A DNA stretch of 64,000 nucleotides from a virus (taxonomy: Duplodnaviria; Caudoviricetes): the IMG/VR virus record IMGVR_UViG_3300028581_000010; one strand, 5' to 3'. Both the position numbers and the translations under genes were made by a program. The notes under the pieces are model-generated. The model searched no databases and had not been told where the DNA came from. It worked only from the letters and a program-made list of their open reading frames with translations. Below are positions 20,439 to 58,467 of the stretch, piece after piece (within the stretch, counting starts at the first letter, position 1; the number at the start of each line of letters is the position of its first letter).

Positions 20439-20639
20439 TTAAGTTAAGCCCAATTGTCGAGCAACATCGTCGAAATTCTTGTCTTCTCCTTTTGTATAGC
20501 GCACCCAGCTTTTTCCGTTATCAATAAAGCGATAGATTGTATTTGTCTTACCGTCTTCTGACTTGATTAATATTCCGGAAGCTTCTGTGGTTTCCAATAG
20601 AACGGGCTGCCTAAAGTCGCCTACAACAATTACTGTCAT
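20439..20639 (-). CDS. Hypothetical protein
   Basis: 66-aa ORF filling the operon, coupled to the upstream gene. Confidence 0.6.
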   Translation of the reverse strand: MTVIVVGDFRQPVLLETTEASGILIKSEDGKTNTIYRFIDNGKSWVRYTKGEDKNFDDVARQLGLT

Positions 20640-20908
20640 ACTGTGCCCAGATGCTGCTTAAGTGTTTGCATCTGCCGTTGTACCTGGTCCTGCTGCATTA
20701 GTTGCTGCAAGGCCTCGTAGTCCTCTGGCTGAATGTCTTGCAACGGAGCGTCCTGTACCTGATTAGGCGCGAGTTGCTTAAACAACTCCTCCGCTGGCTG
20801 ATACTCCATAGCGCGCTTGTAAGCGTGGGCTGCCTCATCGGGAGTCAGCCCACACTCATCTTCAGCGAACTTAATAAAGCCTGCTTCGAAGGGGTACATC
20901 TCAGACAA
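20636..20908 (-). CDS. Small Gln-rich protein with the shared N-terminal module (FEAGFIKFAEDECGL)
   Basis: Carries the same F..GF.K.A...GL module as the head-cluster proteins. Confidence 0.7.
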   Translation of the reverse strand: MSEMYPFEAGFIKFAEDECGLTPDEAAHAYKRAMEYQPAEELFKQLAPNQVQDAPLQDIQPEDYEALQQLMQQDQVQRQMQTLKQHLGTV

Positions 20909-23900
20909 TAAGCTTGAGGTTAATATAGTTCATCGGATAAGGAACGTTCAATCTCACCTCTACGTCAATCCTATCCTTGAAGTTCGGGTTGATCTGCAGC
21001 AATAGGATGTCGTCCTTGGGAGTGAAGCTTGTCAGCTGGTTCCCTGCGCGTACGGTGCGTGTACCTGTCGCGCGGAAGTTGAGCTCGCCGATGATTGCCT
21101 CACGCACAACTAGGAGATTCTCGTAGTTGACGTTGTATTTGCCGATGTATGGAGCGAGAGCGTGCTTCAACCCGTAGCTGATATTGTCGACGTTAGTCGT
21201 AATAGAATCTTCGGATGTGTTCAAGCTGTCGTTAGCGGTTGTGAGCTGATGTCTGACATATGGCGTAGCCCCCACAACTTCTTGTGTTGCCAACCAGATT
21301 CCCTGCTCAGCCATCGTGTTAAGCTGATCCTGTGTAAAGGTTTCCACCACCTTGGAAAGGTCGTCAGCTCCTAGGAACTCAGTGTTAGTGAGACCTTGGT
21401 GAGGGACCACCGAGGAACGGAGGCCTGCGAAAGCTGCAGCCAGCACATAACCAGGCTTTGTGATGCCGTTGCTCTTGTATGTATCTGGAAACACAACGCG
21501 GACACGCCGGTTGTTGTACTCGCCGCCGATGAATGCAATGTTTGTCGCACGCTCATCTTTCGTGTAAACACGAACAACTTGCGCTTTAACTGGAGTGTTG
21601 ATCGGGCTTGCAAGCGAAGAGGTCAGTACTAGAGACTCCTCCGTGCGGACCTCGTCTACGGTGTACTCGTCATAGATGACGTCACTGTTAGGGTCGAGCC
21701 GGAAGTTAACGCGGACCTTGTCGTTCGGGCGCACACCATCAGTAATGAAGGAGGCACCTAGGATGGTCACCAGTCTATTCTGAGAGCCCGTTACAACCGG
21801 GTCATCGGTGATAGTTGCCGTCCAGGCTGTAACACCGTCCTCTTTGAGGTCATATAGGCCGGTAGAAAGGGTGTCCTTAACACCCAGCCAAGCCACACGC
21901 CAGCGTCCTACCTCAGGAGTACTATAGGCATTTGCATGTGACACAACCGCTTCCTGAATGGACCGGTCGAAGGTCATCGGTACAAAGCTGTAGACCTTGT
22001 CGTTCTTCTTGGCGATTTCGATAGCAGCGTTGTATCCTGCCAGATCGTCGGTGGCTACACCAATGAAATATACAATCTGGTTGGCCGAATTTAGTGCGGC
22101 GTCATACACACCCTGAGCCAGTGGGTTGTCTGGGTGAATCTTACCCAGTAGAGCAGCTACAGAGCTGGCACTTCTAACCCCCGAAATAGAGTTCACATTA
22201 TTCTGCAGTAGATCTCTATGCTGCACGAAGAGCTTAGCGGCCACTACGGGCAACCGCACAGGCTCGGCAGAGGCAAGCAGGTTGGTCACATATGTCGTGA
22301 TGCCCGCGTTAATCGTAATGTAGTTGTCTTCCTGCGACCAGTTAACAGTTTCGTCAACCAAGTCTCTAAGAGAAGGAATCTCAATAGAGGTCTGCGTGAG
22401 GAATAGCTTGGCCGTAAAGGTTGAAGCAAGGTTGAGGGAGGACTCTCCGAGGTTATCGGAAAGTTCCACAATCTTAACAGCTCCAATTTTAGCTGCGGTG
22501 GTGGCAATGTAGTAGACATCGCCGGTAATCAGTCCGCCACCGGCAGAGCCGTCTGCGAAGGTAGCGGTTAGTCCATAATTTCCAACACGGAATGGTACAT
22601 CCTCCCGAACAAGTACTGCAGCCGACGAATCTACATCCGAAGAAGTGATTGTGACTTTTGCGCAAGTGTCGGCGTTTGTGGAACCGTTATAGAATGCCCC
22701 GCCGCGAACAACCGTAAGCTTGTAAACCAGGTCTACAGGAGCTGTGAAGGTCGAAGTCGAGAGTGCTACGGTTGGATTGACCAGCGCGGCGCCTGCCGTA
22801 ACAGTGAAAGACCAGCTCTGGCCGACAACAAACGCGGTTGTGTCAGAGAAGTCTAGTTGAATATCATTTGCATCAGTGTCATCTACTACAAGGATGTCAG
22901 CAGCGATCGCCACGTCTGTCTTTGTAACAAATGCACCAGCTGCAGAGCTCACGGAAAACTTAGCAGTGGCCAGGCTCGTGCCCTCGGTCACTACAACGGT
23001 ATATGTGTCGCTCATTATACGAGCGGCAGGATAGCCAGCGTAGTTGGTCGAGGAGTTGAGGACAGTTACACCCGTGGCGAGCTGCTCCCCGATACCGAGC
23101 CAAGTGTATGTTGGCGCGTTGTTAAAATCTTCCGTCTGAACACCAACGTTAGCAACGTCATTGTAGATGCCCCCGACCTTATAGGTCAAGTTAGAGGCTG
23201 TGCCAGTTACAACTGCACTCAGCGATACCGAGGTAGCGCTGTTGTAGCCGATGATCTTGTACGTCCCCTTGCCAGTAATCGTGATATACTGCCCAACCAT
23301 CGCAGCTGTAAAGCTTGTTCCAGTGAACGTGGTTGTGTTGTTGGAGGCTCCGTTAGAACCTGTCAGCAGTGCGACTCCTACAGTAGCATCAAGCGAGCTG
23401 TCACCTACTGTTTTGGGTGTGTCGGCATGCAACCCTTTGATCTTAGATTTGAGTACATTTCCAAGGTTGTCAGTTACTTCGATAACATCACCAATTTTAA
23501 CGTCGCGCTCAGAAAATACGGCATCACGATCTGCTACGCTGGTGGAAACAAGGTTGACGGTGGAGAAGCGTACGCGATTCGTGTGTGTGCTTCCGTTGTC
23601 AGCAAGCACCTTTGTCACTGCTGCGTCGCCAGAATCCGAGCCTAGCGACGCGTTTGGAAAATAGAGGGCCTCGACGGCTTCTGCAAATACCTTCGTGTAG
23701 TCGTGATCCACATTTCCGCCAGCTGGCACATTTGGAAAGCTGTAAGTTACGTCCAAGAGATACTGATACTTGTTAGCCAGTACGCTGTCGTCGGGATTAA
23801 CGACGGCTGTGAGCTGTTTCTCGAGTGCTTCATTGTAGCGCAGCAGCGAGTAGTTGGGCCCTATGATGAACGCCGGTAGTGGAAACTCCGCGTAGTTAGG

Positions 23901-23951
23901 TACTTGAGTGAACTCCTGCTGAACAAGAACTTTGGGTGTTACGTATGCCAT
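20901..23951 (-). CDS. Contractile tail sheath protein (large, with inserted domains)
   Basis: MAYVTPKVLVQQEF N-terminus; C-terminal sheath motifs (AAAFAGLRS...HQGLTN, RHQLTT...SITTNVDNISY, RIDVEVRLNVPYPMNYINLKL). Confidence 0.9.
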   Translation of the reverse strand: MAYVTPKVLVQQEFTQVPNYAEFPLPAFIIGPNYSLLRYNEALEKQLTAVVNPDDSVLANKYQYLLDVTYSFPNVPAGGNVDHDYTKVFAEAVEALYFPNASLGSDSGDAAVTKVLADNGSTHTNRVRFSTVNLVSTSVADRDAVFSERDVKIGDVIEVTDNLGNVLKSKIKGLHADTPKTVGDSSLDATVGVALLTGSNGASNNTTTFTGTSFTAAMVGQYITITGKGTYKIIGYNSATSVSLSAVVTGTASNLTYKVGGIYNDVANVGVQTEDFNNAPTYTWLGIGEQLATGVTVLNSSTNYAGYPAARIMSDTYTVVVTEGTSLATAKFSVSSAAGAFVTKTDVAIAADILVVDDTDANDIQLDFSDTTAFVVGQSWSFTVTAGAALVNPTVALSTSTFTAPVDLVYKLTVVRGGAFYNGSTNADTCAKVTITSSDVDSSAAVLVREDVPFRVGNYGLTATFADGSAGGGLITGDVYYIATTAAKIGAVKIVELSDNLGESSLNLASTFTAKLFLTQTSIEIPSLRDLVDETVNWSQEDNYITINAGITTYVTNLLASAEPVRLPVVAAKLFVQHRDLLQNNVNSISGVRSASSVAALLGKIHPDNPLAQGVYDAALNSANQIVYFIGVATDDLAGYNAAIEIAKKNDKVYSFVPMTFDRSIQEAVVSHANAYSTPEVGRWRVAWLGVKDTLSTGLYDLKEDGVTAWTATITDDPVVTGSQNRLVTILGASFITDGVRPNDKVRVNFRLDPNSDVIYDEYTVDEVRTEESLVLTSSLASPINTPVKAQVVRVYTKDERATNIAFIGGEYNNRRVRVVFPDTYKSNGITKPGYVLAAAFAGLRSSVVPHQGLTNTEFLGADDLSKVVETFTQDQLNTMAEQGIWLATQEVVGATPYVRHQLTTANDSLNTSEDSITTNVDNISYGLKHALAPYIGKYNVNYENLLVVREAIIGELNFRATGTRTVRAGNQLTSFTPKDDILLLQINPNFKDRIDVEVRLNVPYPMNYINLKLIV

Positions 23952-23979
23952 AATGTTTAATTTCTGATGTTGTTATTTA

Positions 23980-24008: not shown

Positions 24009-24035
24009 TGCTTATTTTGCAGGCAGTTGATTTTT

Positions 24036-26169: not shown

Positions 26170-26181
26170 AGAATTAGTCGG

Positions 26182-26971: not shown

Positions 26972-26993
26972 TTATTCTAGCTGTGAGCTAAGA

Positions 26994-28744: not shown

Positions 28745-29194
28745 TTATTTCTCTTGAGGTGCTGCGCCTCCAAGTAGCTGTGTGCCTTTGAAGCCTGTCT
28801 CTGTAGACTGCAGCTTCTCCGCTAGCAACTTCTTGATGGTTTCCCGCTTACTGTCATGATCCGCAAAGAGCGCGGCAAGAGGTATCTGCCCGCCCACCCA
28901 TCCACCTTTACCAGAGGAACCCTGATGCATTCGGCGACTTAGGCGTGTGCCCAGCTCGGAAAGTGGTCCTTCAACAAAAGGATTCATCCAGTAGTGGCCT
29001 GGGTGGTTCTTTCTGTTATGTACCATTGCCTTGAGTTTAATCTCGTCAGCAGCTGCGTTAGCGGCTTGCTGCAAGCTATAAGGTCCGTCTTCGGCGGAGG
29101 CTTTAATCAACGTAACAGCTTCACCACGGCTGAGACCGTAGGCTGCTGCTTGCTTGATAGCTCCAGTTAGAAATGAGTGTTCGTAGTTATTCAT
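28745..29194 (-). CDS. Putative internal head protein with the shared module
   Basis: Likely start ATG 29194 (MNNYEHSFLTGAIKQAAAYGLSRGEAVTLIKASA). Confidence 0.7.
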   Translation of the reverse strand: MNNYEHSFLTGAIKQAAAYGLSRGEAVTLIKASAEDGPYSLQQAANAAADEIKLKAMVHNRKNHPGHYWMNPFVEGPLSELGTRLSRRMHQGSSGKGGWVGGQIPLAALFADHDSKRETIKKLLAEKLQSTETGFKGTQLLGGAAPQEK

Positions 29195-29588
29195 CGAGTA
29201 GGTTGTAATTGTTGTCATATCCGAACGCGCGCTGCATAACGGGATCGTCAGTAGCGCCTGCCGTCTTAACACGGGATACACGACCGACGTTCACTACGTC
29301 AGCCGCTTTGCAGATCTTCTCAACGACCTTAGCTAGATAAGCAGGGTCCTCGTTAGACTTTTTGATAAATTGTTTCTTCTCGTACGTGTCGCAGATAAAG
29401 TCTGAGTCGTACAGAGCATTAGCAGCCTTTTTGAGCGCTCCGTTAAATCGGTCGGAGCGTTCCTCTAGCTCATTGGTCAGCGAGGCGTTCTTGTCTTCTA
29501 GGGAAGCTACTTTTGCTTCCAAGGCATGAACCTCGTCGACAGACAGCTTAACAAACTCAGCTATTTTTTCCAGGTGTGCCTTTTCCAT
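29187..29588 (-). CDS. Coiled-coil scaffold-like head protein
   Basis: Heptad repeat LEAKVASLEDKNASLTNELEER; several K-x-A motifs; upstream of the capsid genes. Confidence 0.65.
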   Translation of the reverse strand: MEKAHLEKIAEFVKLSVDEVHALEAKVASLEDKNASLTNELEERSDRFNGALKKAANALYDSDFICDTYEKKQFIKKSNEDPAYLAKVVEKICKAADVVNVGRVSRVKTAGATDDPVMQRAFGYDNNYNLLDE

Positions 29589-30662: not shown

Positions 30663-30685
30663 AATATTATTTGTTGTTTGTTGTT

Positions 30686-31303
30686 TTATACTAGTTGATT
30701 TTTGTCCTGAGCGCAAGTAAATTTGCGGCTTTTTACTGACTTTTTCATATCTTCTCCAACCTTACTCAAGTTGTCTTTCTCCCACAGTGGGCGTAAATTG
30801 GTTAGCGCCCAGCCGCGTTTGAACTCTGTGTCGTCATGACTTTTATAACTGAATGAACCAAGCGGTTCGATATGGTCCACCACCCAGCCACCTTTGCCAT
30901 AATTCTCCCAAGTCATCCCATCAGCAAATTTACTTTCTAAGTGCCGTCTTAGGTCTTCTACAGTGTAGCCAACTAGTCCTTCCCAGCTGCGCCCACCTTT
31001 TCGAAGTTCGTTAGCCCGTAGATCGCGTGCCACTGCGCACCGGATGTTATTATTCAACCGAAGCTTGACGTCGGCCTGTAGGCGCTCACGGCTGCGATCG
31101 CGATGATACGGGCGCATTTCAACCTTGTGGGCTTTAAGCCAAGTAGAAGATCTCAAATAGCTCTCCTCTTTGTGCCCATGATACCAACGTTTATTGTCAG
31201 CCGTATTACAGTCCTTGCAAGAGCTGCGCAGCCCATCCTTAGTAACAGCTCTGTAAAAGGCGTGAGTCGCTTTCAACATGTTGCACCTGCTACAAAGTTT
31301 CAT
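30686..31303 (-). CDS. HNH homing endonuclease with N-terminal zinc finger
   Basis: CSRC...CKDC zinc finger; LESKFADGMTWENYG..WVVDHIEP...TNLRPLWEKDNLSK HNH motif. Confidence 0.88.
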   Translation of the reverse strand: MKLCSRCNMLKATHAFYRAVTKDGLRSSCKDCNTADNKRWYHGHKEESYLRSSTWLKAHKVEMRPYHRDRSRERLQADVKLRLNNNIRCAVARDLRANELRKGGRSWEGLVGYTVEDLRRHLESKFADGMTWENYGKGGWVVDHIEPLGSFSYKSHDDTEFKRGWALTNLRPLWEKDNLSKVGEDMKKSVKSRKFTCAQDKNQLV

Positions 31304-31324: not shown

Positions 31325-32731
31325 TTATGCTGCTTGTTGATGGTCATGTCCACCACTCAACCCCATGGCAAGAGCACCTGCTCCTAGTGCGCCTGCTCCT
31401 GCGCCAATGCCAAAAGCGGCACCTGGATGCTCACTACCGAACCCCATCGTAGCATCATACCCACCGGAGAGTTTCTGCTTCACAAGATCCCAGAGACCGG
31501 GGTCTGATTCAACCGCAGCTTTTGCGTCTGGGGGCAGTTTCGATTTGAGCGCTGTATCCGCCGGGGAATCCGGCTTGCGGGGTTGGCGAGGCTTGCGTAC
31601 CTTTGGAGCTGCAACCGTCGGAGGCACAACCGGGGCAGCTGGGGCAGTGAGGACATCCTGCGCAGCATTTAGTGTTTGAGAGGTCGGCGAGGGGCCTGCA
31701 AAGGCCTTTGGCTTCGCCCCTGCTGGACGCTTAGCGGGTAGCACCGAGCGCCCGCTACTCACTGTAGCTTTTGGTGCTCCAGTCAAAACTTGCTGCATGC
31801 CCTTTCCTAGCCCGTCGAAGCCGGCTGCGTTCTTCTCCAGCTCTTCATAAACGAGCTCAAAAGCTGTCTTGTCGTCGAGACCATACTCACGAGCGCGCTC
31901 AACGACACCCTCGAAGTAAGCAGCTGTCTTTTCGTCGACCTCTGTAGAGGCCGCTTGTTTAGTCTGTGTTGTGTCGACAACGTAAGAAGGGTCTGACAGT
32001 GTGTTGATGGTAGTCACCAACGCGTTGTCGTACATATCAACAGCTTCTTTAACATTTACACCGTGCTCAACAGCACGAGATAAAAATCCTTCCACATATT
32101 CTGCGGATTTAACATAATTCAAAGCACTGGTCTTTGCTGCAAGCTGTGCTGCGGGGTCTTCCTCTGGAGGAAGCTCTGCGCCTGCGGCTGCTTCTGGTGG
32201 AAGTCCGGCAGCTGCCTCTGGAGGCATTCCAGCGCCTTCATCACCATCGGGTTCGCCTGCGGGAAGCGAGGCGTCCGGATTCTGTTGCAAATGATCAGCA
32301 ATAGCCTGAGCTAGTTGATGTAGTTCTGGGTCCTCTTGTCCTTCGGCTTCAGGGGCGCCACTTTGGGCTCCACCAATATCACCAGCTAGCTCGGAAGCAA
32401 GCTGCTCGAGTTCCTCTGGAGAAAGTTGTGCTAAGAGTTGATCGATATCACCATGCCCGCCTTCTTCCCCACCACCAAGGCCTTCAAGGGCTTCGGCTGG
32501 GTTTGGCTGTGCACCGGCTGCCTCAGGAGGCATTGCTGGGCCTGCGGCTGCTTCTTCAAGACCTGCGCCCTGCGGGAGAGCGTTCGGGTCTTCTTGCGGA
32601 GGAGCGCCTGCGGCCATAGCAGCCATAGCGGCTGGGTCAGCTGCCTTTTTTAGCAAATATTGAATCTGTTCGTCAGAAAGACCGTTTGCCTGTGCAGCCT
32701 TGATGAAACCATTAGTGAAATTGTCGTTCAT
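31325..32731 (-). CDS. Putative internal head protein (acidic Pro/Ala-rich, three shared modules, C-terminal glycine zipper)
   Basis: FTNGFIKAAQANGL, YVEGFLSRAVEHGV and YFEGVVERAREYGL modules; C-terminal GAAFGIGAGAGALGAGALAMG. Confidence 0.75.
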   Translation of the reverse strand: MNDNFTNGFIKAAQANGLSDEQIQYLLKKAADPAAMAAMAAGAPPQEDPNALPQGAGLEEAAAGPAMPPEAAGAQPNPAEALEGLGGGEEGGHGDIDQLLAQLSPEELEQLASELAGDIGGAQSGAPEAEGQEDPELHQLAQAIADHLQQNPDASLPAGEPDGDEGAGMPPEAAAGLPPEAAAGAELPPEEDPAAQLAAKTSALNYVKSAEYVEGFLSRAVEHGVNVKEAVDMYDNALVTTINTLSDPSYVVDTTQTKQAASTEVDEKTAAYFEGVVERAREYGLDDKTAFELVYEELEKNAAGFDGLGKGMQQVLTGAPKATVSSGRSVLPAKRPAGAKPKAFAGPSPTSQTLNAAQDVLTAPAAPVVPPTVAAPKVRKPRQPRKPDSPADTALKSKLPPDAKAAVESDPGLWDLVKQKLSGGYDATMGFGSEHPGAAFGIGAGAGALGAGALAMGLSGGHDHQQAA

Positions 32732-35561: not shown

Positions 35562-36125
35562 TTAAGAGTAAAGCATTTCCTGCTCGACACGATTGCCCTG
35601 CAGCAGATCGCCCATATTTTGAGGTGAGTTGAGCTTTTTGATCGAACGCGTGCGCTCGTAGTCCTTCTTAGCTGCAGGTAGAGAAGATAGAATACCTGCG
35701 AGCACAGCAGCGCTGACACCCATACCAGTAGGAAGGTGTGTCTTAAACTTAGGGTGGATATTCAACAAAGGTGTGTGCTTTAATACATACCCTGATGCCG
35801 CCCCGGCACCTCCACCAATAAGGGCGCCTTTAGTTCCAGCTCCCAACCCTGCAAGAATACCTTCGAGCTCTGGAATCTTATCCAACGACTCGTCTCTACG
35901 TTGCAGAAGATCTGCGCGGTACCGCGTGGTGTCTTCTTGTGAGTTAGATCCATACGCTGGGTCAGAGCCTTGGTCTCGCAGCGCTGCCCGAATATGAGCC
36001 ATGTCGATAGGGCTGATTGCTTGGTCGCTAGCCATTGCTGCCTTGAACAACTCTGTTGCTTCTTGTCTGGTTAGCCCTGCAGCAGCTGCTGCTTTTATGA
36101 ATCCCTTGATGCTTTGCTTGTTCAT
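35562..36125 (-). CDS. Glycine-zipper protein with the shared N-terminal module
   Basis: IKGFIKAAAAAGLTRQEATELFKAAM leader; GLGAGTKGALIGGGAGAASG zipper. Confidence 0.75.
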   Translation of the reverse strand: MNKQSIKGFIKAAAAAGLTRQEATELFKAAMASDQAISPIDMAHIRAALRDQGSDPAYGSNSQEDTTRYRADLLQRRDESLDKIPELEGILAGLGAGTKGALIGGGAGAASGYVLKHTPLLNIHPKFKTHLPTGMGVSAAVLAGILSSLPAAKKDYERTRSIKKLNSPQNMGDLLQGNRVEQEMLYS

Positions 36126-36141: not shown

Positions 36142-36474
36142 TTACTGTCCAGTTACTCTCTCTAATCCTGCCTGTATAGGGATAGCTCCAGCCATGTCTA
36201 AGGCCTGTGTACCCAACCCCATCGTATCCTTGGCGGCAATGCGTGCGCCAACTCGCCCGGCACCAAGTATGCCGTTCGCCAAAGCACCTGTGCCTTTCTT
36301 ACCTGCCCAGCCCATGGCGGCTTGCGTGGCTTGGCGCCGAAGCAGCGAGGCTAGAGCAAAAGAACCTATGCTGGTTGCTATTGGCATCAAAAAAGACTGC
36401 TTTGTAAGCCCAAGCTCTTCTGCACGCTTATCAGCGCCACGTAAAAAAGCTTCGCTATACTCTTGCTGGGTCAT
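36142..36474 (-). CDS. Small Gly/Ala-rich protein with the shared N-terminal module
   Basis: YSEAFLRGADKRAEELGLTKQS leader followed by hydrophobic Gly/Ala segments. Confidence 0.7.
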   Translation of the reverse strand: MTQQEYSEAFLRGADKRAEELGLTKQSFLMPIATSIGSFALASLLRRQATQAAMGWAGKKGTGALANGILGAGRVGARIAAKDTMGLGTQALDMAGAIPIQAGLERVTGQ

Positions 36475-49400: not shown

Positions 49401-50536
49401 AAGCTATACATTTTTCCGGCGTGCAGATACACAGGAATGGCCTCAACAGGCTCTAAAGAGATGTTTCCTGTTTCGAGCTCTCTACTGTACGCACGCGTAC
49501 CTATCGGAATATCTGCATAAAGCCTCCAGCCGTACTCTGTAAGTACCTCATGATCTGTAGTTAGGCACAGCTTATCAGCCTGCCCCATCGGGCGGGTTGT
49601 TTTGATTGTAACCGTTACGAGTTTACCTGTGTTACTAACATCAACGACCTCGCCGTCGTGCTCGTACTCCCAATTGGAGGAGATGTCGGAGAATGCGTTG
49701 CGCAGTACTCTGGATAGTTTTCCAAGCTGAAGGTCCAGAGACTTAATAGTCTTAGGTTGGAAAGCGAGAATAACAGGATCACCATTCTTAACCTTGGTAC
49801 CTGTCTTAACCACACCGGCACTGTCGATGGTATCCAGCTGGTCGTTGAGATACTTATTAGGAAAGAGTGAGACGTATCTATCTTTATCGGTTTCAATACC
49901 TCTGGCGATCTCCAACCGTATTGGTACGAGCTGTTCGGCCTCAAGCTTCTTAGCGGCATCCTCAGAGATAACCAAGGCGTCCTCGAAGTTATATGAGCGA
50001 AAAGGCATGACTGCAGTCTTGAGGTTCATACCTAAGGCTAGCTTGCCTGCCTTGTCTGAGTAGTTGGAGGTGGCCATCAGCTCACCCTTGGAGACCTTGT
50101 CACCCTTCTTGACGACTGGCGTGTTGTGCAGGTAGCTCTCGCGCCCCACCAGGTAGTTATTATACAATTCGTGATGGACGTTCTCTCCGTCGTCAGTCTT
50201 TACCGTAATACCTTCTGGGTCTACCTTGGTTACAGTTCCGCCATCCTTGGCGTGTAGCGCCGCGGTCTCTCTGCCGTATATGGAGTTGAAGGAGCTCTTG
50301 GAGTGCGTGTCGGACGACTGCACTAGGGGAACCTCGCGGTTGATCAGCGTCATGGCCTGCGTTGAGGACTTCTCTCCAATGAGTACGCGGGCGCCGGATA
50401 CGGAGCTGACTCCGGGAATAAGATTTGTGACCGGCGAGAAGAAGGTGGCTGTCGAGGGAATAGAGTAGTCTGCCTTAGTGGAGGCGGGTACCTTGGTCAA
50501 CTTTCCGTTGATCAACATGAATTTCATTTTTTTCAT
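46457..50536 (-). CDS. rpoBC: RNA polymerase beta C-terminal part fused to beta' N-terminal part (both double-psi barrels), intein-containing
   Basis: Beta motifs: SPVTNLIP..RVLIG, LALGMNL, YNFEDAL, ADKL|SNAYGAKG, DVILNSMSVTSR, HHIAEDKISSR. Beta' motifs: GPIKKP, GGLFD, HIDL, VPVIPAQFRP, VDLVGRGV-like, TRDPQL and catalytic YGADSDGDQ. Confidence 0.95.
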   Translation of the reverse strand: MKKMKFMLINGKLTKVPASTKADYSIPSTATFFSPVTNLIPGVSSVSGARVLIGEKSSTQAMTLINREVPLVQSSDTHSKSSFNSIYGRETAALHAKDGGTVTKVDPEGITVKTDDGENVHHELYNNYLVGRESYLHNTPVVKKGDKVSKGELMATSNYSDKAGKLALGMNLKTAVMPFRSYNFEDALVISEDAAKKLEAEQLVPIRLEIARGIETDKDRYVSLFPNKYLNDQLDTIDSAGVVKTGTKVKNGDPVILAFQPKTIKSLDLQLGKLSRVLRNAFSDISSNWEYEHDGEVVDVSNTGKLVTVTIKTTRPMGQADKLCLTTDHEVLTEYGWRLYADIPIGTRAYSRELETGNISLEPVEAIPVYLHAGKMYSLSTSSVDMCVTLNHKLVANRRKGWLGKKFNGKYELIPAEKLVGKNYKLVLNGSPIAGIKIDSITLPGAEYTNGSKGVRTSPSMTLPAEAYFALVGLFVSEGNLVNDVKSGSFGIDIAQSKYSCVQKITELFDKHAMHYIRGPHGFRIYSKALYTHFKQFGSGFKSKQLPDFLFKYDHSHLQTIFDWAMLGDGHVGKTCMFYFTSSELLRDSFQRLVVHLGKSSTYTPRGYVGKEFTICGKATKQTAVNYAISIYCSKFYPEINHSHTRSQKAQHEALIDYAGPVFCLTLPKHHTFYVRRNGKAHWTGNSNAYGAKGVVRIIPNTEMPQGEDGKPVDVILNSMSVTSRVAPGLINSLALGKVAQKLGHPLNMNQFTEGSSVEKVIAELDKHGISDTEKLYDPQSGKHIDVMVGPAYYTRLHHIAEDKISSRSAATTYDINQQPSKSGTDEKSKRLGNLATTVALSNDAKAVLRDIATIRATKNDEYWTALKLGYPTPPPKVPFIFNKFVGHLKGAGVNMVQDGNLFNIFPQTDKDITAMSAGPIKKPLTYKLKKDDLIAEDGGLFDASTTGIYGDNYNHIDLAVPMPNPISEDYIRKMLKLTKVKFEEKLASGELEKELRGMDIDQKLEETKGFIKKGNKSGRDDALKVHAFLKMLKEHKIAISDLLLTKVPVIPAQFRPILVQGDQVMSADINELYKDLMLVNGSLRENKGEDISPEHEAQAKKKLYEGIKAVYGLGDPVSVKSKEKGFKGLLASALGLRGGSAKESMFQAKVVNKPIDLVGRGVLVPDANLALNEASIPQNIAWNIFSPFIIRRLVRQGIPAIKAREYVEKRHELAAAALEQERLDRPGIITRDPQLSKYNFQGFYLKPNIDPKDFSLKMNPLVFKGYGADSDGDQLNIQLPASDEAKEEIKEKLLPEKNLIYHRNFTPIFTPSNESATGLFQSSFEDKKNKAVKYSSEQEVVRDFFLGKLDIGDRVEIK
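48479..49567 (-). mobile_element. 363-aa intein with LAGLIDADG-type homing endonuclease
   Basis: Block A CLTTDHEVLT, block B VTLNHKL, endonuclease motifs LVGLFVSEGN and WAMLGDGH, block F VFCLTLPKHHTFYV, terminal TGN followed by extein Ser. Removal restores ADKL-SNAYGAKGVV (= GDKMAGRHGNKGVI). Confidence 0.92.
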
Positions 50537-50540: not shown

Positions 50541-50894
50541 TTAAACTTCCTGTCCGTCAGTGGTCTCGGCGTACATGGCGTCCAGCTCCTCGACCACGTC
50601 GTCTACGAAGCGTACTCCGCAGCGGTCCCATAGAAAGTCAGCTAGCCCGTCGGAGATCTCGTCAACGCTATCGTTACCGATATCCCAGCAGCAGCAGTGC
50701 AGTAGCTCGTCGATCAGAGTGGCCAGGAGCTCCTTGCCCTCCTCACGGTTGTCTATCTGTACGGCCTTGCCCTTCGTATCAGGATGGTCGGTGAGACCAC
50801 GGGCGTCCTTGAGTTTGCCTACCTTGAATCTGTAGCGCTTGCCGCGGATGCTTACAGTCTTGATCTGTTTCAGGCGTTCCATCGTTTTAGACAT
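50541..50894 (-). CDS. Small zincin-like protein with a degenerate HExxH motif (DELLH)
   Basis: Likely start ATG 50894 (MSKTMER). RYRFKV...GLTD...VQID...LATLIDELLHC...VDEIS.GLADF follows the small phage metallopeptidase pattern. Confidence 0.55.
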   Translation of the reverse strand: MSKTMERLKQIKTVSIRGKRYRFKVGKLKDARGLTDHPDTKGKAVQIDNREEGKELLATLIDELLHCCCWDIGNDSVDEISDGLADFLWDRCGVRFVDDVVEELDAMYAETTDGQEV

Positions 50895-50901
50895 ATGGGA
50901 C

Positions 50902-50930
50902 ATCTTACACGATTCAGAGGCGCGGGGCAA
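50902..50930 (-). promoter_or_regulatory. Promoter TTGCCC-N17-TAAGAT for the polymerase operon (near-leaderless)
   Basis: The ORF-track TTG start is the -35 box; ATG 50894 lies 7 nt after the -10 box. Confidence 0.55.
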
Positions 50931-51950: not shown

Positions 51951-51978
51951 TTGACTATTCCTGGCCACGCTGTAAAAC
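51951..51978 (+). promoter_or_regulatory. Possible promoter TTGACT-N16-TAAAAC
   Basis: Directly after the terminator; ATG 51987 lies 8 nt after the -10 box. Confidence 0.45.
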
Positions 51979-51986
51979 CATACATT

Positions 51987-54077
51987 ATGCCAGGTTCATT
52001 TCCAGTACCCATGGAAGGAGACGACGGTGACATTGCAACATACTGCTCTAATGTCGCCGTCCACTATCCTATTCATCTGGATCCGGTTAAGAACGCATGG
52101 GACGCCTACGAGAAACAGCACGGTGACTGCCCTACTCAGGCGATGATGGCTCCCTTCTTCGCCGCCTCGGAGTACGTCACTCAGGAACCAGGTCATGTCT
52201 CCGCCATAGGCAAGTACGGAATGAACTGGCTTGCTCCAAACGACTACGTTGCAAACTGGGGGTCGCTGGACGAGATGTCCAAGAAGGTGTTCAAGGAGCT
52301 GCTGCTCAAGGACTCCTCTCGCTCCAATCGCTGCTACTACGGGTTGAAGGAGCACGACTCTCTTCCCGAGCACCTGCTTCTCCTCACCGGGGCCGAGGTA
52401 TGGAACATGTTTCCAGATCACGCCATCGACATGGTCACCTCCAATCTCAAGGATGGCTACTACTACTCTCGCAACAAAGTGAGATGCCGCTCTCTTGACG
52501 CCAGGACGGCCATGGAAGCCGTCGACGTGTACGAGCGCACCTACGACCCTGCCATACTGTTCAAAGACCTGGACGCGGTCGTTCTGCTCGTAGACAGCCC
52601 CGCTGAGATGCACGACCTGGACGAGGACGTCAACGTGACGCGCGACACTCACCAGAAGTTCTATCACAACGTGGTAGCCTTCATGAAGAAGCAGATCGTC
52701 AAGAGCAAGGTCTACTCTCTCAAGTACTCGCACGAGGTAGCCGTCACCTCCATTCGCAACAAGAAGTTCATGCCTCACACGCACATGGTAGCCTGGTATC
52801 CCAAGGGCACGGAGTTTCCCATAGGAGAGCTTCAGGCGGACATGGAGCTGAAGTACCCAGGCTACAAACTGTCCATGGAGACCAACTACGGCAAGAACGG
52901 CGTCCATACCTCCTACTCCACGGTAAAGGACTTCTGCAAGTACATGTTCAAGGTATCCACGCTGGCCAAGACATATCGGCGGGAGTTCTCCTACGACGAC
53001 GCCAGAGAGTTCAACATCGCTACCGTGCAGTGCCTTCGCGCACTGGTGGATCTCGCTACGGGCACGGGAGAAAAGAAGAAACTATTTCCAAGAACAAACT
53101 GCATCTACGTGCCCAAGAAGAGCGACGGAGTGGGGGCAAAGTCGAAATACGTACATCCGAAGTTGCAAAAGTTGCGGAAACGTCGTAAAATAATCGAAAG
53201 GAATGCTGCAGTCGTCGAGCTGCCTCCGAACAATACTTCTACAAATGACACAACAAGACCTTCAATTCAGCCTGATCAAACTAGCGGAGCAGTCAGGATT
53301 AGCCCCGGAGACCGATGCGTTTCTGGAGGGAATGGCCAAGGAAGCCGACTTACTGCTGGAGCAACATCAGCTGCAAAAGAGAGCCTTCTTCAACAACGCG
53401 ATACGGGCGGTAGTCAAAGAAGCCCATATTCAAGGGATATCCTCGACGTCGCCAGAGTGCTTGGACTTGATCCAAAAACTCTCGGAGATGCAGGAGCCCG
53501 AAGAGCTCATACAGGCGCTCCAGAAGAACGCCCAAGACTTCCAGTCTGCCCTATCCGAGCAGATGATCAAGGAGGGCTACGACCAGGCGTTTGTGGATGG
53601 CATGATCAAGGAAGCGGGGTTGTTCTCTGCCGTAGGGGCGCTGCCTGCTGTGAAAGCCGTGGCCAGAGGCTTCGGCTCCGAGGGAAGAGCGATGCTGGGC
53701 GCGGCTACGTCGGGAGCGCTCACTCGCCCCATAGGAAAAGACTCAACCCACGGCTTCTCGCAATGGTGGAAGGGAGTCAAGGGAGATGCGCGCGGGCTAG
53801 CCAACGAGGGCCTGCCCGCGGCAGCCCGTGTACCCGGCACGGCCGACGCTGGCGAGGCAGTTGCAAAATATCTAGGCGAGATGGACAGCGGGCTCGCGGG
53901 CCTTGCAAAGGACAGTCCGCACGTGCAGGCCATTACACCCATGTCAATGGCGAGGCGCAACACACATATGAAGTGGGACGAAGGCAACATAGGCCCACAC
54001 TCTGTAAAAGCCGACAGCGCGCAGTCTTCGATGCTCGGCGCTGGACAGGCGGCCGAGCGTGCCGCGGCGGAAGCTGA
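51987..54077 (+). CDS. HUH-superfamily (rolling-circle Rep-like) endonuclease; folded part ends near 53160 and the frame continues over the next gene
   Basis: SHEV...FMPHTHMVAW (HUH motif II) and VKDFCKYMFK (YxxK motif III) in Rep_1-like order and spacing. The C-terminal ~280 codons look like an alternative-frame reading. Confidence 0.65.
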   Translation: MPGSFPVPMEGDDGDIATYCSNVAVHYPIHLDPVKNAWDAYEKQHGDCPTQAMMAPFFAASEYVTQEPGHVSAIGKYGMNWLAPNDYVANWGSLDEMSKKVFKELLLKDSSRSNRCYYGLKEHDSLPEHLLLLTGAEVWNMFPDHAIDMVTSNLKDGYYYSRNKVRCRSLDARTAMEAVDVYERTYDPAILFKDLDAVVLLVDSPAEMHDLDEDVNVTRDTHQKFYHNVVAFMKKQIVKSKVYSLKYSHEVAVTSIRNKKFMPHTHMVAWYPKGTEFPIGELQADMELKYPGYKLSMETNYGKNGVHTSYSTVKDFCKYMFKVSTLAKTYRREFSYDDAREFNIATVQCLRALVDLATGTGEKKKLFPRTNCIYVPKKSDGVGAKSKYVHPKLQKLRKRRKIIERNAAVVELPPNNTSTNDTTRPSIQPDQTSGAVRISPGDRCVSGGNGQGSRLTAGATSAAKESLLQQRDTGGSQRSPYSRDILDVARVLGLDPKTLGDAGARRAHTGAPEERPRLPVCPIRADDQGGLRPGVCGWHDQGSGVVLCRRGAACCESRGQRLRLRGKSDAGRGYVGSAHSPHRKRLNPRLLAMVEGSQGRCARASQRGPARGSPCTRHGRRWRGSCKISRRDGQRARGPCKGQSARAGHYTHVNGEAQHTYEVGRRQHRPTLCKSRQRAVFDARRWTGGRACRGGS
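53163..53191 (+). promoter_or_regulatory. Promoter TTGCAA-N17-TAAAAT inside the HUH ORF
   Basis: Read directly; lies upstream of ATG 53245. Confidence 0.7.
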
Positions 54078-54990
54078 GGCTAGGGCACTCGCTGCAAAAT
54101 GGTATCCGCAGTTTAAGCGCGACCCAGTCGGCACGCACGGTGACCCTCTATATAGGCAGGAGTTGGAGGCGCTGTTCGCGAAGCATCAAGGACGCATCGA
54201 TAAGGGATTCTTCGGCGCAGGAGGCAAAACCGGGCTTACCGCCCAACTCGGAGACCTGCGTAACTCTTATTTAAACAATGGCAACCCGGACATGACTCGG
54301 GACCTGCTCAAGCAACTCGCTTCTCCCGCCGGCGCAAAGATGGAGGCTCTGTCTCCGGGGCTAGCTATTCCAGGCGCCCACGCACAGATAGCTGACCCAC
54401 GCGCCTACGCAGCTGCTGCAGCCGGTAGGGGAGTTGGCTCTAATAGGCACCCGGTATCCGGCTTTTTAGGAGGCACAGCCGCTAGCATTCCTGCAGGTAT
54501 GCTTGGTGCCGCAGCCGGCGGAGCTTTACTGGGACCTCCTGGTGCTTTCGTAGGTGGGCTACTCGGTGGAGGCGCGGGTTGGAAGCTCGGCAAAGGTGTC
54601 GCTGGTCGCCTAGGCGTAGGTAAGACTATGCTTGGAGCAGGCGCCCTGGGTGCCGGTGGTATGTATCTTGGAGGCAAGGCAGTTATGGGTCAGAGTGACG
54701 CCAAGGATGCGCAGGGCCTTCCCGTAGATCGAAACCGGGCCGTTCCGTTTATGAAGAACAACTGGGCCGGTGCAGCAGGTGGCGCACTACTTGCGTCAAC
54801 TATTGCAAGAGAGCTCGGACTGGACGCAGGAGCGATGTCTTGGATACTGCCGCTTCTAGGTGGTGTAGCAGGATACAACTATCTACCACAACTCATGAAC
54901 AAGTGGCAGGACCCGAATGGCTACGGAGTAAATGCCGTACCTGAGGGCAATACACAGATGACGGCGCAGACTCCGTTTAAGTTAATGTAA
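53245..54990 (+). CDS. Putative internal head / ejection protein with shared modules and long glycine zippers
   Basis: Likely start MTQQDLQFSLIKLAEQSGL; FLEGMAKEA, QKRAFF and FVDGMIKEAG modules; GMLGAAAGGALLGPPGAFVGGLLGGGAG zipper. Confidence 0.8.
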   Translation: MTQQDLQFSLIKLAEQSGLAPETDAFLEGMAKEADLLLEQHQLQKRAFFNNAIRAVVKEAHIQGISSTSPECLDLIQKLSEMQEPEELIQALQKNAQDFQSALSEQMIKEGYDQAFVDGMIKEAGLFSAVGALPAVKAVARGFGSEGRAMLGAATSGALTRPIGKDSTHGFSQWWKGVKGDARGLANEGLPAAARVPGTADAGEAVAKYLGEMDSGLAGLAKDSPHVQAITPMSMARRNTHMKWDEGNIGPHSVKADSAQSSMLGAGQAAERAAAEAEARALAAKWYPQFKRDPVGTHGDPLYRQELEALFAKHQGRIDKGFFGAGGKTGLTAQLGDLRNSYLNNGNPDMTRDLLKQLASPAGAKMEALSPGLAIPGAHAQIADPRAYAAAAAGRGVGSNRHPVSGFLGGTAASIPAGMLGAAAGGALLGPPGAFVGGLLGGGAGWKLGKGVAGRLGVGKTMLGAGALGAGGMYLGGKAVMGQSDAKDAQGLPVDRNRAVPFMKNNWAGAAGGALLASTIARELGLDAGAMSWILPLLGGVAGYNYLPQLMNKWQDPNGYGVNAVPEGNTQMTAQTPFKLM

Positions 54991-55751
54991 TGCAACCTAT
55001 ACACCTACCTGCATTTTACATGGGAGTATCCGACCAACTGTTTAAGGGAAGCCCGAGCGACTCTATGTCTGGTCATGGAAATACCAACAGCTCCATACTA
55101 CCTAACATTCCCTCCCAGGCTAAATGGAAGTATGCCAAAGGAGAGGACTTCTTTCGTGTTACGGACGGGCATCATGTCTATAACTTCGGAATGGCTGGCA
55201 AGTTTTCTGATGAGGACAAGCTAGTGGACAAGCTGGAGGATGTACCTACTCCGGAGTTTAACAAAGGCGCGGTTGAGGAAGGGACCGCACAAGTACACCG
55301 GGCCTCCCCAGATAATATCTACCTTACGCTTGCGGACGGCAAATTGAACCCGACCTTCGAGCTAAAACACCACGACGGCAAGCAGTGGAAGTACGCTCCT
55401 TCAAAGAAGTTTATCGATAAGCTCAAAAAGCAGACCGCCGGCAGTGTGCCCACCATTCTTGATCCTGACTCGCTGATTCGTGGTGCTACAGGAATGCTCA
55501 AGAAAAGCGTTTTTGACCTATCTTCAGCTACCGAGCTCCTTGCACACGGCGTACCTAATGCGCTAGGCAGCCTGCTTGACTTCCGACTCGCTCATCCAGC
55601 GCTCGCTGCCACAGGCGCGGTCGTAGGCGCAAACACGCTGTTGCCTAAGTTATTCGGTAAAAAGCCAAATATGGGCACTGGGTTGCTGGCACCGCTGGCC
55701 GCCTCCACTGCCGTAGGTGCCGTGGCCCCTGCCATTAAAAGCATGTTATGA
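54990..55751 (+). CDS. Protein with a beta-rich domain and C-terminal hydrophobic Gly/Ala helices
   Basis: Coupled start; AFYMGVSDQLFKGS leader; ALAATGAVVGA and GLLAPLAASTAVGAV segments. Confidence 0.7.
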   Translation: MQPIHLPAFYMGVSDQLFKGSPSDSMSGHGNTNSSILPNIPSQAKWKYAKGEDFFRVTDGHHVYNFGMAGKFSDEDKLVDKLEDVPTPEFNKGAVEEGTAQVHRASPDNIYLTLADGKLNPTFELKHHDGKQWKYAPSKKFIDKLKKQTAGSVPTILDPDSLIRGATGMLKKSVFDLSSATELLAHGVPNALGSLLDFRLAHPALAATGAVVGANTLLPKLFGKKPNMGTGLLAPLAASTAVGAVAPAIKSML

Positions 55752-56113
55752 TACGGACTCCAGACAACTTCTATAAGCCGCGCTCGTTGGACACGATGCT
55801 GGATATGCGCAATGCTATTCAGCCAGAGCATCTGATGCACATGATCGCACGTGATCCTGGTCTGCCTAACGAAAGAAAGCAGCCACTGCTCACCATGCTG
55901 AGTACGCCAGAAGTATTTGACCATCTACTAGTAGGTGCGGCTGGCGCAGCGTTGGCCTTGGCGGTAGCAAAGTTCGCTGAGTTGGACAAGGCTCCCAAGG
56001 TTCTTGTCGGTTTGGCTGGCTTTGGAATCGGAAATGTGGTATACAATATGTTAAAGGAAAATAAATTCACAAGCTTCGACCCGCACACGGGCATAGCAAC
56101 ACTACACACATAA
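55748..56113 (+). CDS. Small two-helix membrane-like protein
   Basis: LLVGAAGAALALAVAKF and VLVGLAGFGIGNVV segments. Confidence 0.7.
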   Translation: MIRTPDNFYKPRSLDTMLDMRNAIQPEHLMHMIARDPGLPNERKQPLLTMLSTPEVFDHLLVGAAGAALALAVAKFAELDKAPKVLVGLAGFGIGNVVYNMLKENKFTSFDPHTGIATLHT

Positions 56114-56114
56114 A

Positions 56115-56492
56115 ATGGAAAGCACTCTAACAAAATACGCACAAGCAATTAAAGCCGAGCTGGCCCTGGAGTTAGCCAAACAGGGATCGACATTGGCGCA
56201 ATTCGACCAGGAGCTGGCCTCGGTTAACACCGGCGAAGGTGTATTGAAGATCGCGGCCGCCGAGACAAGCATGTTGCATGACGCCTTTCGTGGTGGGCTG
56301 AATGCGGGCGCGTCCATTCCGGACTTGGCCCTGAAGTTATCGCTGGCCGGAGGCGCAGCCGCAGGGCTAACTGCGGACGAGATGGATAACTCTGTAAACA
56401 ACCTAAATAAGTCTTTACAAAGCGAGCGCGAAAAGATTAAGTTGGTGCAGCGCCTAACAGCTAACCTAAAGAGAGAACATGGACTTAGATAA
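56115..56492 (+). CDS. Small helical protein with K-x-A motifs and a Gly/Ala helix
   Basis: LTKYAQ, LKIAAA, LSLAGGAAAGL, then a coiled coil. Confidence 0.7.
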   Translation: MESTLTKYAQAIKAELALELAKQGSTLAQFDQELASVNTGEGVLKIAAAETSMLHDAFRGGLNAGASIPDLALKLSLAGGAAAGLTADEMDNSVNNLNKSLQSEREKIKLVQRLTANLKREHGLR

Positions 56493-56835
56493 AGATTACG
56501 CTTCGTTTGGAACAGTATACACAGATAAGACCCTGAGAAGGGACCGCAATATTCGTGCAGAGGTCACGAACAAAGAATTCGATCCTAATAAAGTGATCGA
56601 CGCCTATGAGCAGTCACGCGGTATTAAGCCACGCCCGACTGTCGACAAGAATAACTTCGAGTTCAAGAGTATCGTACTCGATCCCGAGCAAGATAAAGAC
56701 CGCGACATGCTGGACATGTTGCTGAACGACGACAAGTATGTAATCTCGCTCTATAAAGATAACTGGACTCACCACGGGTCCTACCGCGTGTTCATTATTT
56801 ACGGAAAGCGCAAAGAGAAAGAAACTTCACAATGA
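56479..56835 (+). CDS. Hypothetical protein
   Basis: 118-aa ORF coupled to both neighbours. Confidence 0.65.
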   Translation: MDLDKDYASFGTVYTDKTLRRDRNIRAEVTNKEFDPNKVIDAYEQSRGIKPRPTVDKNNFEFKSIVLDPEQDKDRDMLDMLLNDDKYVISLYKDNWTHHGSYRVFIIYGKRKEKETSQ

Positions 56836-57695
56836 AAAACGGCACAGATATACCACTAACCCCAGACGAGGCCTACCAGGCCTCAAAGATGTTTGGCAGC
56901 AGCCTGTTCAGCGCTATTCAACTCACTAAGGAGTTGGAGAAATACCGCGATGCCCGGCAAACAAAGCGCGACCCGCACGACAACATTCTTCGAATTCCTA
57001 TTCCAAAGGATTTAATGCAGCCTACCAAGCTCGGCGCGTGGGTAGGGCAGGCCACCGGCAAAACCTTCCAGGACTTTATTAAAAACAGGTTGGCTAAGAA
57101 ACAAGTCAGCGATGGCATAGCTAAGTCAAAAAATCTTTTTCTCACATTAGCTCCTCGTGGTGGTGCTGTCGTTAAAAAGGCAGATGAATCTATGGACCCA
57201 GGCGTGATCGGTAGAGCGCTGCGGTTCAACAAGCATCCAGTGCGCATGCTTGTAGGAAGCCAATCAGGCTTCAAAGACGCACAACGCGATTATCATGAGC
57301 AGGAGAGACAACAGATCGCGAGAGAGTTAATGGAGGCACAGAAAGAGTATATCTCAACGCTCCAGAGGATTAAAATGGGTGAGGCAACTCCTTACGTTGA
57401 CGCTTTTTGCAACGGAATAGCAGAGCACGTAGTTTTTGAAAAAGAAGCTGCTGACACGGCCGAAGATGTTAATATCTCCGACCATGCTGTTCGTCGGATG
57501 CTGGGAGATGTTTTCAACGTCGCCAAGAAACCATTGCGCCCAGCCACCGATGCCGCGGCTTCGGGATTGCTTTCCACTGGAGTAAGTGCCGCCTATTTGA
57601 CCTATCTGCTACGCAAGAAAACACGCGAAGAGCCCCCTGCTTATCTGCGCGAAGCTATGCCTACGCAGGTTGAACTGGTTCCTTACGGCGACTAA
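56832..57695 (+). CDS. Putative internal head protein
   Basis: VKKAD and FCNGIAEHVVFEKEAA motifs; hydrophobic AASGLLSTGVSAAYLTYLL segment. Confidence 0.7.
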   Translation: MKNGTDIPLTPDEAYQASKMFGSSLFSAIQLTKELEKYRDARQTKRDPHDNILRIPIPKDLMQPTKLGAWVGQATGKTFQDFIKNRLAKKQVSDGIAKSKNLFLTLAPRGGAVVKKADESMDPGVIGRALRFNKHPVRMLVGSQSGFKDAQRDYHEQERQQIARELMEAQKEYISTLQRIKMGEATPYVDAFCNGIAEHVVFEKEAADTAEDVNISDHAVRRMLGDVFNVAKKPLRPATDAAASGLLSTGVSAAYLTYLLRKKTREEPPAYLREAMPTQVELVPYGD

Positions 57696-57696
57696 G

Positions 57697-58467
57697 ATGC
57701 ACATCGACTGGAATGCTTTATCAGACGGGGTTGGTAGTGAATTGGCTAAAAGTGCCAATCTGGAAGCAGCTACGCCTCCAGCCACAGGGCGGGCAGCGTG
57801 GCAGCAAGGCGCACGTAACGTTGTTGAGGGGGCCATACAGCACCCATTGGTACGGCCGCTTGCACAGCATCCATTTACGGCCGCACCACGAGCGGTCTTT
57901 AACAACGTAACTAAGCCAGCTCTGGACTTTGTTAGCGGCGGGGCTATGACCGGGCTACAAGACAAGTACAATGCCGCCGGAAAGGCTATATCCGCTGTAG
58001 GTGACGTTGCAGGCCAGGTGCTCCCTATAGGGCTTGCGGCCGGCGGCGCAGCTCTTCTAGGCGGGCTAGGAGGAGGAAAGGGCCGCTCTACTCCCGAGCA
58101 ACCGTCAACTGGAGGGTACGCACCAGGCAGACGTACGCTACTCACTCGTGGGCACGGCGATGTTAACTCGCTAGTTAACCCTATGACCTCCTGGGCCCCT
58201 CAAGGTGGAGGTCTTAAACTTGCAGGCGTGATGGACTCCGTTGGCTGGGCCGCACGAAACCGTGTAGCCAACATGGCACTCAACGCAGCTACTGGCCTGC
58301 CGTTAAATACAAATCCACTGCACGCGGCGGCGGAGCCTCCAGCCAAGCGTAACGAGGACCTGGCCAAGGAAGTGGAGCTTGTCACAAAGTATCCAGAGAT
58401 CAAGGCAATGCTGGAGCAGCCGGAAACAAAGGAGCACTTGTTAGACATCCTTGAAGGAAAGGCATAA
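57697..58467 (+). CDS. Putative internal head protein, Gly/Ala-rich
   Basis: Likely start ATG 57697 (MHIDWNALSDGVGSELAKSAN); GLAAGGAALLGGLGGG; LKLAG. Confidence 0.7.
   Translation: MHIDWNALSDGVGSELAKSANLEAATPPATGRAAWQQGARNVVEGAIQHPLVRPLAQHPFTAAPRAVFNNVTKPALDFVSGGAMTGLQDKYNAAGKAISAVGDVAGQVLPIGLAAGGAALLGGLGGGKGRSTPEQPSTGGYAPGRRTLLTRGHGDVNSLVNPMTSWAPQGGGLKLAGVMDSVGWAARNRVANMALNAATGLPLNTNPLHAAAEPPAKRNEDLAKEVELVTKYPEIKAMLEQPETKEHLLDILEGKA

Follow-up and report, generated by a model that had tools for sequence, protein, structure and literature searches.

A helical-hairpin module recurring near the N-termini of head-region proteins in an uncultivated large myophage, a candidate docking unit for the procapsid interior

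In bacteriophage T4, a capsid-targeting sequence is present on the internal proteins IPI-III and on Alt, gp67 and gp68 (Mullaney and Black 1996, reviewed in PMC3012670 and PMC5694885), and it is through this sequence that the internal proteins join gp22 in the core (PMC3012670, PMC5694885). In the case of P22, a helix-turn-helix of the scaffold protein binds the coat protein (PMC9965877, PMC12005531) and serves as an encapsulation tag in P22 particles (PMC9962691). The paralogous inner-head and ejection proteins gp47, gp53 and gp54 of SPN3US carry long N-terminal propeptides (PMC5694885, PMC7411985). Head addressing is known in detail for T4 only and in part for the phiKZ-like phages. Large phages whose virions contain an RNA polymerase have many proteins to package and then to eject. 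Here we describe a module of about 30 residues found in one such phage, in a 64,000-nucleotide stretch (the window) of the IMG/VR virus record IMGVR_UViG_3300028581_000010 (Duplodnaviria; Caudoviricetes). The module is statistically real and conserved in minus-strand open reading frames (ORFs) at 20.6-36.5 kb only, around the genes of the head.

A preliminary description of this DNA had quoted the peptides from which the module was recognised, and all of them are present at the ORFs named there (ORFs are designated here by their first coordinate, Table 1). A first hidden Markov model (HMM) was built from seven minus-strand copies in five ORFs and tested by omitting one protein per round; the search space consisted of the 1131 six-frame segments of the window. 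The omitted protein was the top non-training match in five of five rounds, with E-values of 1e-7, 1e-7, 0.0025, 0.029 and 0.044. Profile A1, made of 23 module copies from the window and four related contigs, scored the seven window copies at 34.8-46.7 bits and the next best window segment at 6.2 bits. In 20 residue shuffles of all segments the maximum was 6.7 bits, a gap of at least 28 bits to the true copies, so that the seven copies lie far above the shuffled background against which the preliminary description had proposed to check them.

The view of the module as a discrete unit common to otherwise unrelated, mostly N-terminal contexts was likewise borne out. With the modules masked, the five carriers have no mutual BLAST similarity at E ≤ 1, and the module starts about 3-10 residues past the likely start codon in all five. 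Its reported absence from sheath, tube and baseplate proteins agrees with the lack of any HMM match in the sheath-like and tube genes and in the tail/baseplate block at 1-20 kb. The HMMs do not extend the module to two plus-strand ORFs, 53245 and 56832, which had been listed among its bearers, and HMM scans found no validated copy in the 36.5-58.5 kb part of the range originally outlined. Given that these plus-strand examples are without statistical support, the proposed use of the module by two gene clusters on opposite strands falls away. The observation is real but narrower than first stated, and the interpretation given to it is plausible and in part supported.

The consensus of 290 modules from the 150 best database proteins reads K-[ST]-A-A-Y-[IY]-E-G-F-[LI]-[KE]-[RQ]-A-x-E-Y-G-L-S-x-x-[QE]-A-[VL]-x-L-[YL]-K-x-A. 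Helix 1 corresponds to [YF]-x-x-G-F-[IL]-K-x-A and is followed by a tight turn and N-cap, G-L-[ST]-x-x-[EQ], and by a second helix ending in L-x-K-x-A; in the 23-copy alignment G6 and G15 never vary and A11 hardly does. In an AlphaFold2 model of the 31325 protein, based on a 43-sequence alignment, every module is a pair of helices with a turn of four residues between them (residues 3-15/20-31, 210-222/227-246 and 267-282/287-316), with a predicted local distance difference test (pLDDT) of 82-96 and disordered linkers between the modules. The module is thus predicted to be a helix-turn-helix, or helical hairpin. With Foldseek, the model had no match at E ≤ 1e-3 in either the viral or the PDB libraries. 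A match to the transcription activator-like effector (TALE) repeat in a PDB-sequence profile search was rejected, with 2.6-6.7 bits per repeat and independent E-values of at least 75. The full-sequence TALE E-value is the sum of 12 weak matches to a G-L-T-P-[EQ]-Q turn, and these are spurious because the A-x-x-x-G-L-[ST]-x-x-[EQ] stretch of the module is a classic helix C-cap followed by an N-cap.

In the three-copy protein 31325 the modules are connected by acidic, Pro/Ala/Glu-rich disordered linkers and followed by a C-terminal Gly-rich hydrophobic tail. Both internal copies are preceded by K-[ST]-A, and across the 43 aligned homologues K208-x-A210-x-Y212..G224 is invariant. This protein, whose gene occupies the position expected for a scaffold, is a candidate scaffold or core hub. 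The other carriers have one module each. In 35562 it is followed by a linker and Gly-zipper-like hydrophobic segments; the orthologues in contigs L001-L004 retain the module, and a word-indexed homologue search with this protein as query found only itself. In 36142 the helix and turn run straight into a hydrophobic segment, and the orthologues match weakly. Gly-rich hydrophobic C-terminal segments are a feature of three window carriers (31325, 35562 and 36142). The ORF of 28745, two genes upstream of the major capsid gene, is open to 29281 with a likely start, MNNYEH, at 29194; its family forms 2-6 tandem paralogues in relatives, with orthologues and paralogues in L010-L012. The ORF of 20636 is open to 20908, an identical protein (P0084) begins MYPFEAGF, and orthologues occur in L002, L011 and L012.

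Table 1. Module carriers, neighbouring genes and look-alikes in the window (positions within the 64,000-nucleotide stretch).
Feature	Position	Strand	Remark
Three-copy protein, 468 residues, directly downstream of prohead protease	31325..32731	-	HMM domains 46.7, 41.2, 42.9 bits
31325 module copy 1, N-terminal, DNFTNGFIKAAQANGLSDEQ...	32621..32725	-	
31325 module copy 2, AEYVEGFLSRAVEHGVNVKEAV...	32000..32104	-	
31325 module copy 3, AAYFEGVVERAREYGLDDKTAF...	31820..31924	-	
Protein of 187 residues, N-terminal module at DNA 36015-36119	35562..36125	-	43.0 bits
Protein of 110 residues, N-terminal first helix and turn at DNA 36349-36453	36142..36474	-	34.8 bits
Protein of ~149 residues, N-terminal module at DNA 29075-29179	28745..29194	-	43.8 bits
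Acidic protein of 87 residues, N-terminal module at DNA 20789-20896	20636..20899	-	46.7 bits
Prohead (head maturation) protease, 475 residues	32792..34219	-	phrog_18299, E 1.3e-7, residues 61-211
Major capsid protein, 319 residues	26994..27953	-	26% full-length identity to Arash gp226, E 6e-28
Two coiled-coil, K-x-A-rich scaffold-like genes without module	29739-30716, 29187-29588	-	between hub and capsid genes
K-x-A-rich head protein, 533 residues	36854..38455	-	N-terminus DALSKVAASYDLNPNY...
Sheath-like protein	20901-23951		atlas lead
Tube protein	19979-20407		atlas lead
Multisubunit RNA polymerase genes	43232-45085, 46457-50536		
Gly/Ala-rich protein, 581 residues, only first-helix-like half motifs	53245..54990	+	not a validated carrier
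Protein of 287 residues with internal FCNG motif	56832..57695	+	motif kept in orthologues, not the module

The module is kept in orthologues across at least 10 related viral contigs. Module and gene order are retained in the IMG/VR contigs L001-L005 (protease 59-63% identical), L011 and L012, and a multi-copy protein follows the protease in all of these, in the window and in the contig of P0016. Whole-record scans returned 4-8 matches per related genome (E ≤ 0.1-1): in G002 (93% complete) all five are confined to about 13 kb of the head region, and in G001 (85% complete) all eight to about 28 kb around the head genes. The genes of the prohead protease and the major capsid protein are the centre of its distribution, and the proteins that bear the module evolve fast. 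Tandem carriers occur as well. In G001 (L007 4567-5905, minus strand), three small genes that each start with MNEAFINGF[LV]KRAADYGVS have the polymerase gene on one side and the orthologue of window ORF 50541-50930 on the other, a place where the window has none, and G006 has six carriers in tandem.

Beyond these relatives, an exhaustive profile search of 1.84 billion cluster representatives found 429 clusters with the module at E ≤ 1e-3 and 53 at E ≤ 1e-10. A local rescan of the best 150 proteins placed at least one module in 148, with 2-5 copies in 95 and a single copy in 53; each of the latter scored at least 42 bits, and in 44 of the 53 the module begins within residue 12. DUF6321 (M-P-F-K-S-x-A-Q-R-K-W-M-Y-A...), which may be another virion-associated unit, is fused to the module in both orders (P0089, P0102, P0103 and P0135), and a fusion protein of 799 residues has an HExxH motif and a sub-threshold ATP-grasp match. 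Recombination of the module with different partners is supported by these fusions and by the tandem paralogues of G001 and G006. An EF-hand-like loop, K-L-D-V-D-H-D-G-K-I-E-A-S-D-L, lies between modules 2 and 3 in the hub homologues P0010, P0013, P0021, P0034 and P0153, the last with precomputed EF-hand Pfam hits; the window hub is without it.

A Pfam and PHROG search with the window carriers and the 150 database carriers returned no family for the module, and DUF6401 was discarded, its matches being weak and below the cut-off. The carriers are spread over 54 mostly unannotated PHROGs, with source names that all read 'hypothetical'. No canonical copy, nor any other match, was obtained by tblastn with the carriers against GenBank phages, and a literature search for the motif strings gave nothing relevant. 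Salmonella phage Arash and Vibrio phage D69 have degenerate versions only: their post-protease protein contains three x-x-G-x-x-F-x-E-A-V-E-L-V-K-E-A repeats, and Arash gp221 and D69_0269 share an N-terminal L-x-D-G-[LM]-x-K-x-A...[LI]-[SP]-E-D-Q followed by a Gly zipper, an architecture like that of 35562. The module family has not been described before, and it probably serves the known role of docking or addressing proteins to the procapsid.

How does the module compare with the described systems? As in T4, where the bearers are head-internal proteins, a shared element stands at the extreme N-terminus of otherwise unrelated proteins. A prohead protease is encoded together with what would be a multi-protein core, and the element ends in a candidate protease motif. 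However, the T4 sequence is a propeptide of 10-20 residues that is cleaved after Glu, whereas the module is a predicted hairpin of about 30 residues, also found internally and in tandem, with K-x-A as the candidate motif. Targeting and cleavage, shown in T4, are proposed roles for the module. It is not a short unstructured propeptide of the T4 type, given its length and its two confidently predicted helices.

The likeness to P22 consists in a small helix-turn-helix on a flexible, largely disordered protein (by AlphaFold2), with the hub in the gene position of a scaffold; the P22 domain docks to the procapsid interior and is portable when fused to cargo. In P22 the domain occurs once, at the C-terminus, and escapes proteolysis because the phage lacks a prohead protease, whereas the module is N-terminal or present in three copies and is encoded beside a prohead protease. 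The P22 scaffold was not among the matches of the PDB-sequence profile search with the module. Like the phiKZ-like phages, this phage is a large myophage with a virion polymerase, many internal or ejected proteins and no confirmed single scaffold protein, and conserved N-termini have been proposed as targeting sequences there too. The phiKZ-like propeptides are, however, 80-130 residues long and cut after Glu by a T4 gp21-like protease, unlike the distinct short module here, and the window clade is only distantly related. Encapsulin cargo-loading peptides are likewise short and portable and tether cargo of various kinds to the inner side of an HK97-fold shell. These peptides are C-terminal, extended and of about 10 residues, and belong to non-viral compartments in which no protease is involved; the module is an N-terminal predicted helical hairpin and no such peptide. 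On the features compared, the module would functionally most resemble the T4 capsid-targeting sequence and the P22 helix-turn-helix and belong to neither class, being set apart from the former by length and structure and from the latter by position and copy number.

What might the module do? Our proposal, for and against which we find our confidence evenly balanced, is that it works as a protein-protein docking unit, bringing proteins into the procapsid core or interior. The three-copy protein after the protease would then be a multivalent scaffold or core hub, and the single-copy carriers would be drawn in through their own copy, in homotypic contact with the hub or at a shared site on the inner face of the capsid shell. 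Hydrophobic Gly-zipper tails, such as are typical of proteins that are internal or ejected, occur in several of the single-copy carriers. In the most speculative step, the protease would cut at the flanking K-x-A, and the module would be detached or destroyed on maturation. Arash gp220, gp221 and gp223, homologues with degenerate modules, were detected in virion preparations (PMC10585845). We are doubtful of a more sweeping version, in which one portable hairpin tag, bracketed by K-x-A protease sites, loads changing cargo via the three-copy hub across the whole clade. If this were true, membrane-active ejection proteins and now and then an enzyme would be among the cargo. The module would then parallel the T4 capsid-targeting sequence as a structured element able to occur in repeats; its protease specificity would be new, and it could be put to use as an encapsidation tag.

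The K-x-A triplets deserve closer attention in this respect. K and A stand at positions -4 and -2 ahead of the internal modules and again at +23 and +25, at the module end. The triplet is over-represented in five head-core proteins (z 3-7): 15 observed vs 3.3 expected in 36854 (z 6.8), 17 vs 5.9 in 29739, 7 vs 2.1 in 29187, 13 vs 5.2 in the protease and 10 vs 4.6 in 31325. The enrichment is not seen in the capsid, sheath or polymerase proteins, and it recurs in orthologues from L011, L012, Arash and D69. The extended context is [LI]-x-K-x-A-[AS], and the N-terminal part of the capsid protein has N-E-K-Q-A-A at residue 24. The pattern would be in keeping with proteolytic removal of the module, and K-x-A is a candidate recognition motif of the prohead protease. 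Such a signal could reveal what a poorly characterised family of prohead proteases recognises; members of this family also occur in cluster C mycobacteriophages and in Bacillus phage G.

Several observations weigh against a docking role or against the removal of the module. K-x-A also occurs inside the first helix and could merely reflect Lys/Ala-rich helices. At face value, the 100% coverage listed for gp221 and gp223 in Table 2 of the Arash study (PMC10585845) argues against loss of the N-terminus. That table comprises 116 virion proteins, ribonucleotide reductases among them, and for some gives 100% coverage from two unique peptides (PMC10585845), which suggests that the structural-protein annotations are over-inclusive; owing to this breadth and to the implausible coverage figures, it neither supports nor refutes removal. 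The polymerase subunits of the window are without the module by HMM scan, and the module can therefore not be the sole loading route; in Arash, polymerase subunits are the most abundant proteins of virion preparations (PMC10585845). The 20636 gene falls outside the head block, flanked by the putative genes for sheath and tube. A portal gene was found neither by BLAST against the Arash portal nor in an atlas search of 40651-42846, and for this reason the extent of the head block is drawn from the protease and capsid genes only. Additionally, the module is no clearly better conserved than the rest of the protein between orthologues, except in the 20636 family, and the carriers of the canonical module all come from metagenomes.

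Alternatively, the module could serve to oligomerise an ejected complex that inserts into membranes (an ejectosome or pilot complex), acting after DNA ejection rather than as a loading address. It would hold Gly-zipper proteins together in the host envelope, and these would enter the head by other means. Gly-rich hydrophobic segments are indeed present in 76 of 148 database carriers by a crude test and in window ORFs 31325, 35562, 36142, 34222 and 39699, non-carriers included. A phage with a virion polymerase must eject large proteins, and one carrier gene stands among tail genes. However, an oligomerisation handle requires neither the strong N-terminal bias nor a three-copy protein in the scaffold position, and the hydrophobic segments are absent from 20636, from 28745 and from 42 of the 53 single-copy database carriers. 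On balance we consider this explanation improbable.

Another possibility, to which we give a similarly small chance, is that the module is simply the structural N-terminal domain of diverged scaffold or decoration paralogues, neither an address nor a substrate for cleavage, left by tandem duplication and rapid divergence of low-complexity tails. The tandem arrays, three genes in G001 and six in G006, would fit such a history, as would the low complexity and fast evolution of the tails and the module identity between orthologues, which is about the same as that of the rest of the protein. Yet unrelated parts are found joined to the module: DUF6321 before or after it, the HExxH/ATP-grasp protein of 799 residues and the multi-copy hubs. 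Moreover, carrier tails are 21-35% identical among orthologues, and this conservation makes separate functional families likelier than drift. Finally, chance or a compositional artefact of Ala/Lys-rich helical proteins can be rejected with near certainty for the five minus-strand ORFs: the plus-strand examples do act like chance matches and the generic helix cap also yields summed weak TALE-repeat matches, but leave-one-out recovery in every round, the distance to the shuffled scores, two glycines invariant across 23 copies and the 53 database clusters at E ≤ 1e-10 all speak against it.

Should the docking module and its hub hold, the internal and ejected proteome of a whole uncultivated clade could be listed from sequence, phages in which no scaffold has been identified would gain a testable model of core assembly, and possibly a new encapsidation tag would become available.

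Some proteins resemble carriers by eye. The two plus-strand ORFs, 53245 (FLEGMAKEA and FVDGMIKEAG) and 56832 (FCNGIAEHV...), were both missed by the full-module HMM and by an HMM of the first helix only. In the case of 53245, hhalign of A1 against the aligned N-termini of its family paired 12 helix-1 columns only (probability 30%, P 5.6e-4), and a post-hoc regular expression occurs twice in the protein (P(>=2) = 0.0014), which may be a weak hint of a degenerate first helix and does not make the protein a carrier. The C-terminus of the protease also looks module-like, and hhalign found nothing there (probability 0.4%). The N-terminus of 36854 is similar by eye to the module and to Arash gp220, with 37% identity to residues 28-98 of the latter; the HMM does not pick it.

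Gly-zipper-like hydrophobic segments without the module are found on both strands, at 34222-35556, at 39699-40634 and in many proteins of 53245-58467. The non-carrier neighbours with Gly-rich hydrophobic segments are 34222 and 39699 and, on the plus strand, 53245, 54990, 55748 and 57670. Synteny with G001 and G002 extends over the plus-strand cluster 53245-58467.

The window is densely packed with genes of a large tailed phage and has no nucleotide match among GenBank phages. It belongs to a novel large myophage of an uncultivated clade of about 200 kb, with a virion-type multisubunit RNA polymerase; one of its proteins is also recorded on a 215-kb contig. Genes for tail, head and RNA polymerase lie in a minus-strand block (2-51353); a plus-strand block begins at about 51.2 kb. 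Among cultured phages, Salmonella phage Arash and the Vibrio phages D69, D181 and D148 come nearest, with proteins about 26-29% identical. The protease has homologues in Arash gp222, Bacillus phage G gp19 and the capsid maturation protease of Gordonia phage Pupper, and the major capsid protein is 88-89% identical in L011 and L012. A gene of the HNH/endonuclease VII type (30686-31303, minus strand; phrog_1035, E 2.7e-15) stands between the hub and a scaffold-like gene. It looks like a homing-endonuclease insertion, because in L011 and L012 the hub and scaffold-like genes are directly adjacent.

On the plus strand, ORF 51951-54077 stays open for about 830 nucleotides into 53245-54990 in another frame, with an Arg-rich, junk-like tail. 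This is probably a stop-free out-of-frame reading of a GGN-rich gene, and a frameshift is also possible; a similar, shorter overlap is present in G001 (L007 6375-7808 vs 7531-8565). The minus-strand polymerase gene 46457-50536 encodes 1359 residues, compared with 995 in G001 (L007 1526-4513).

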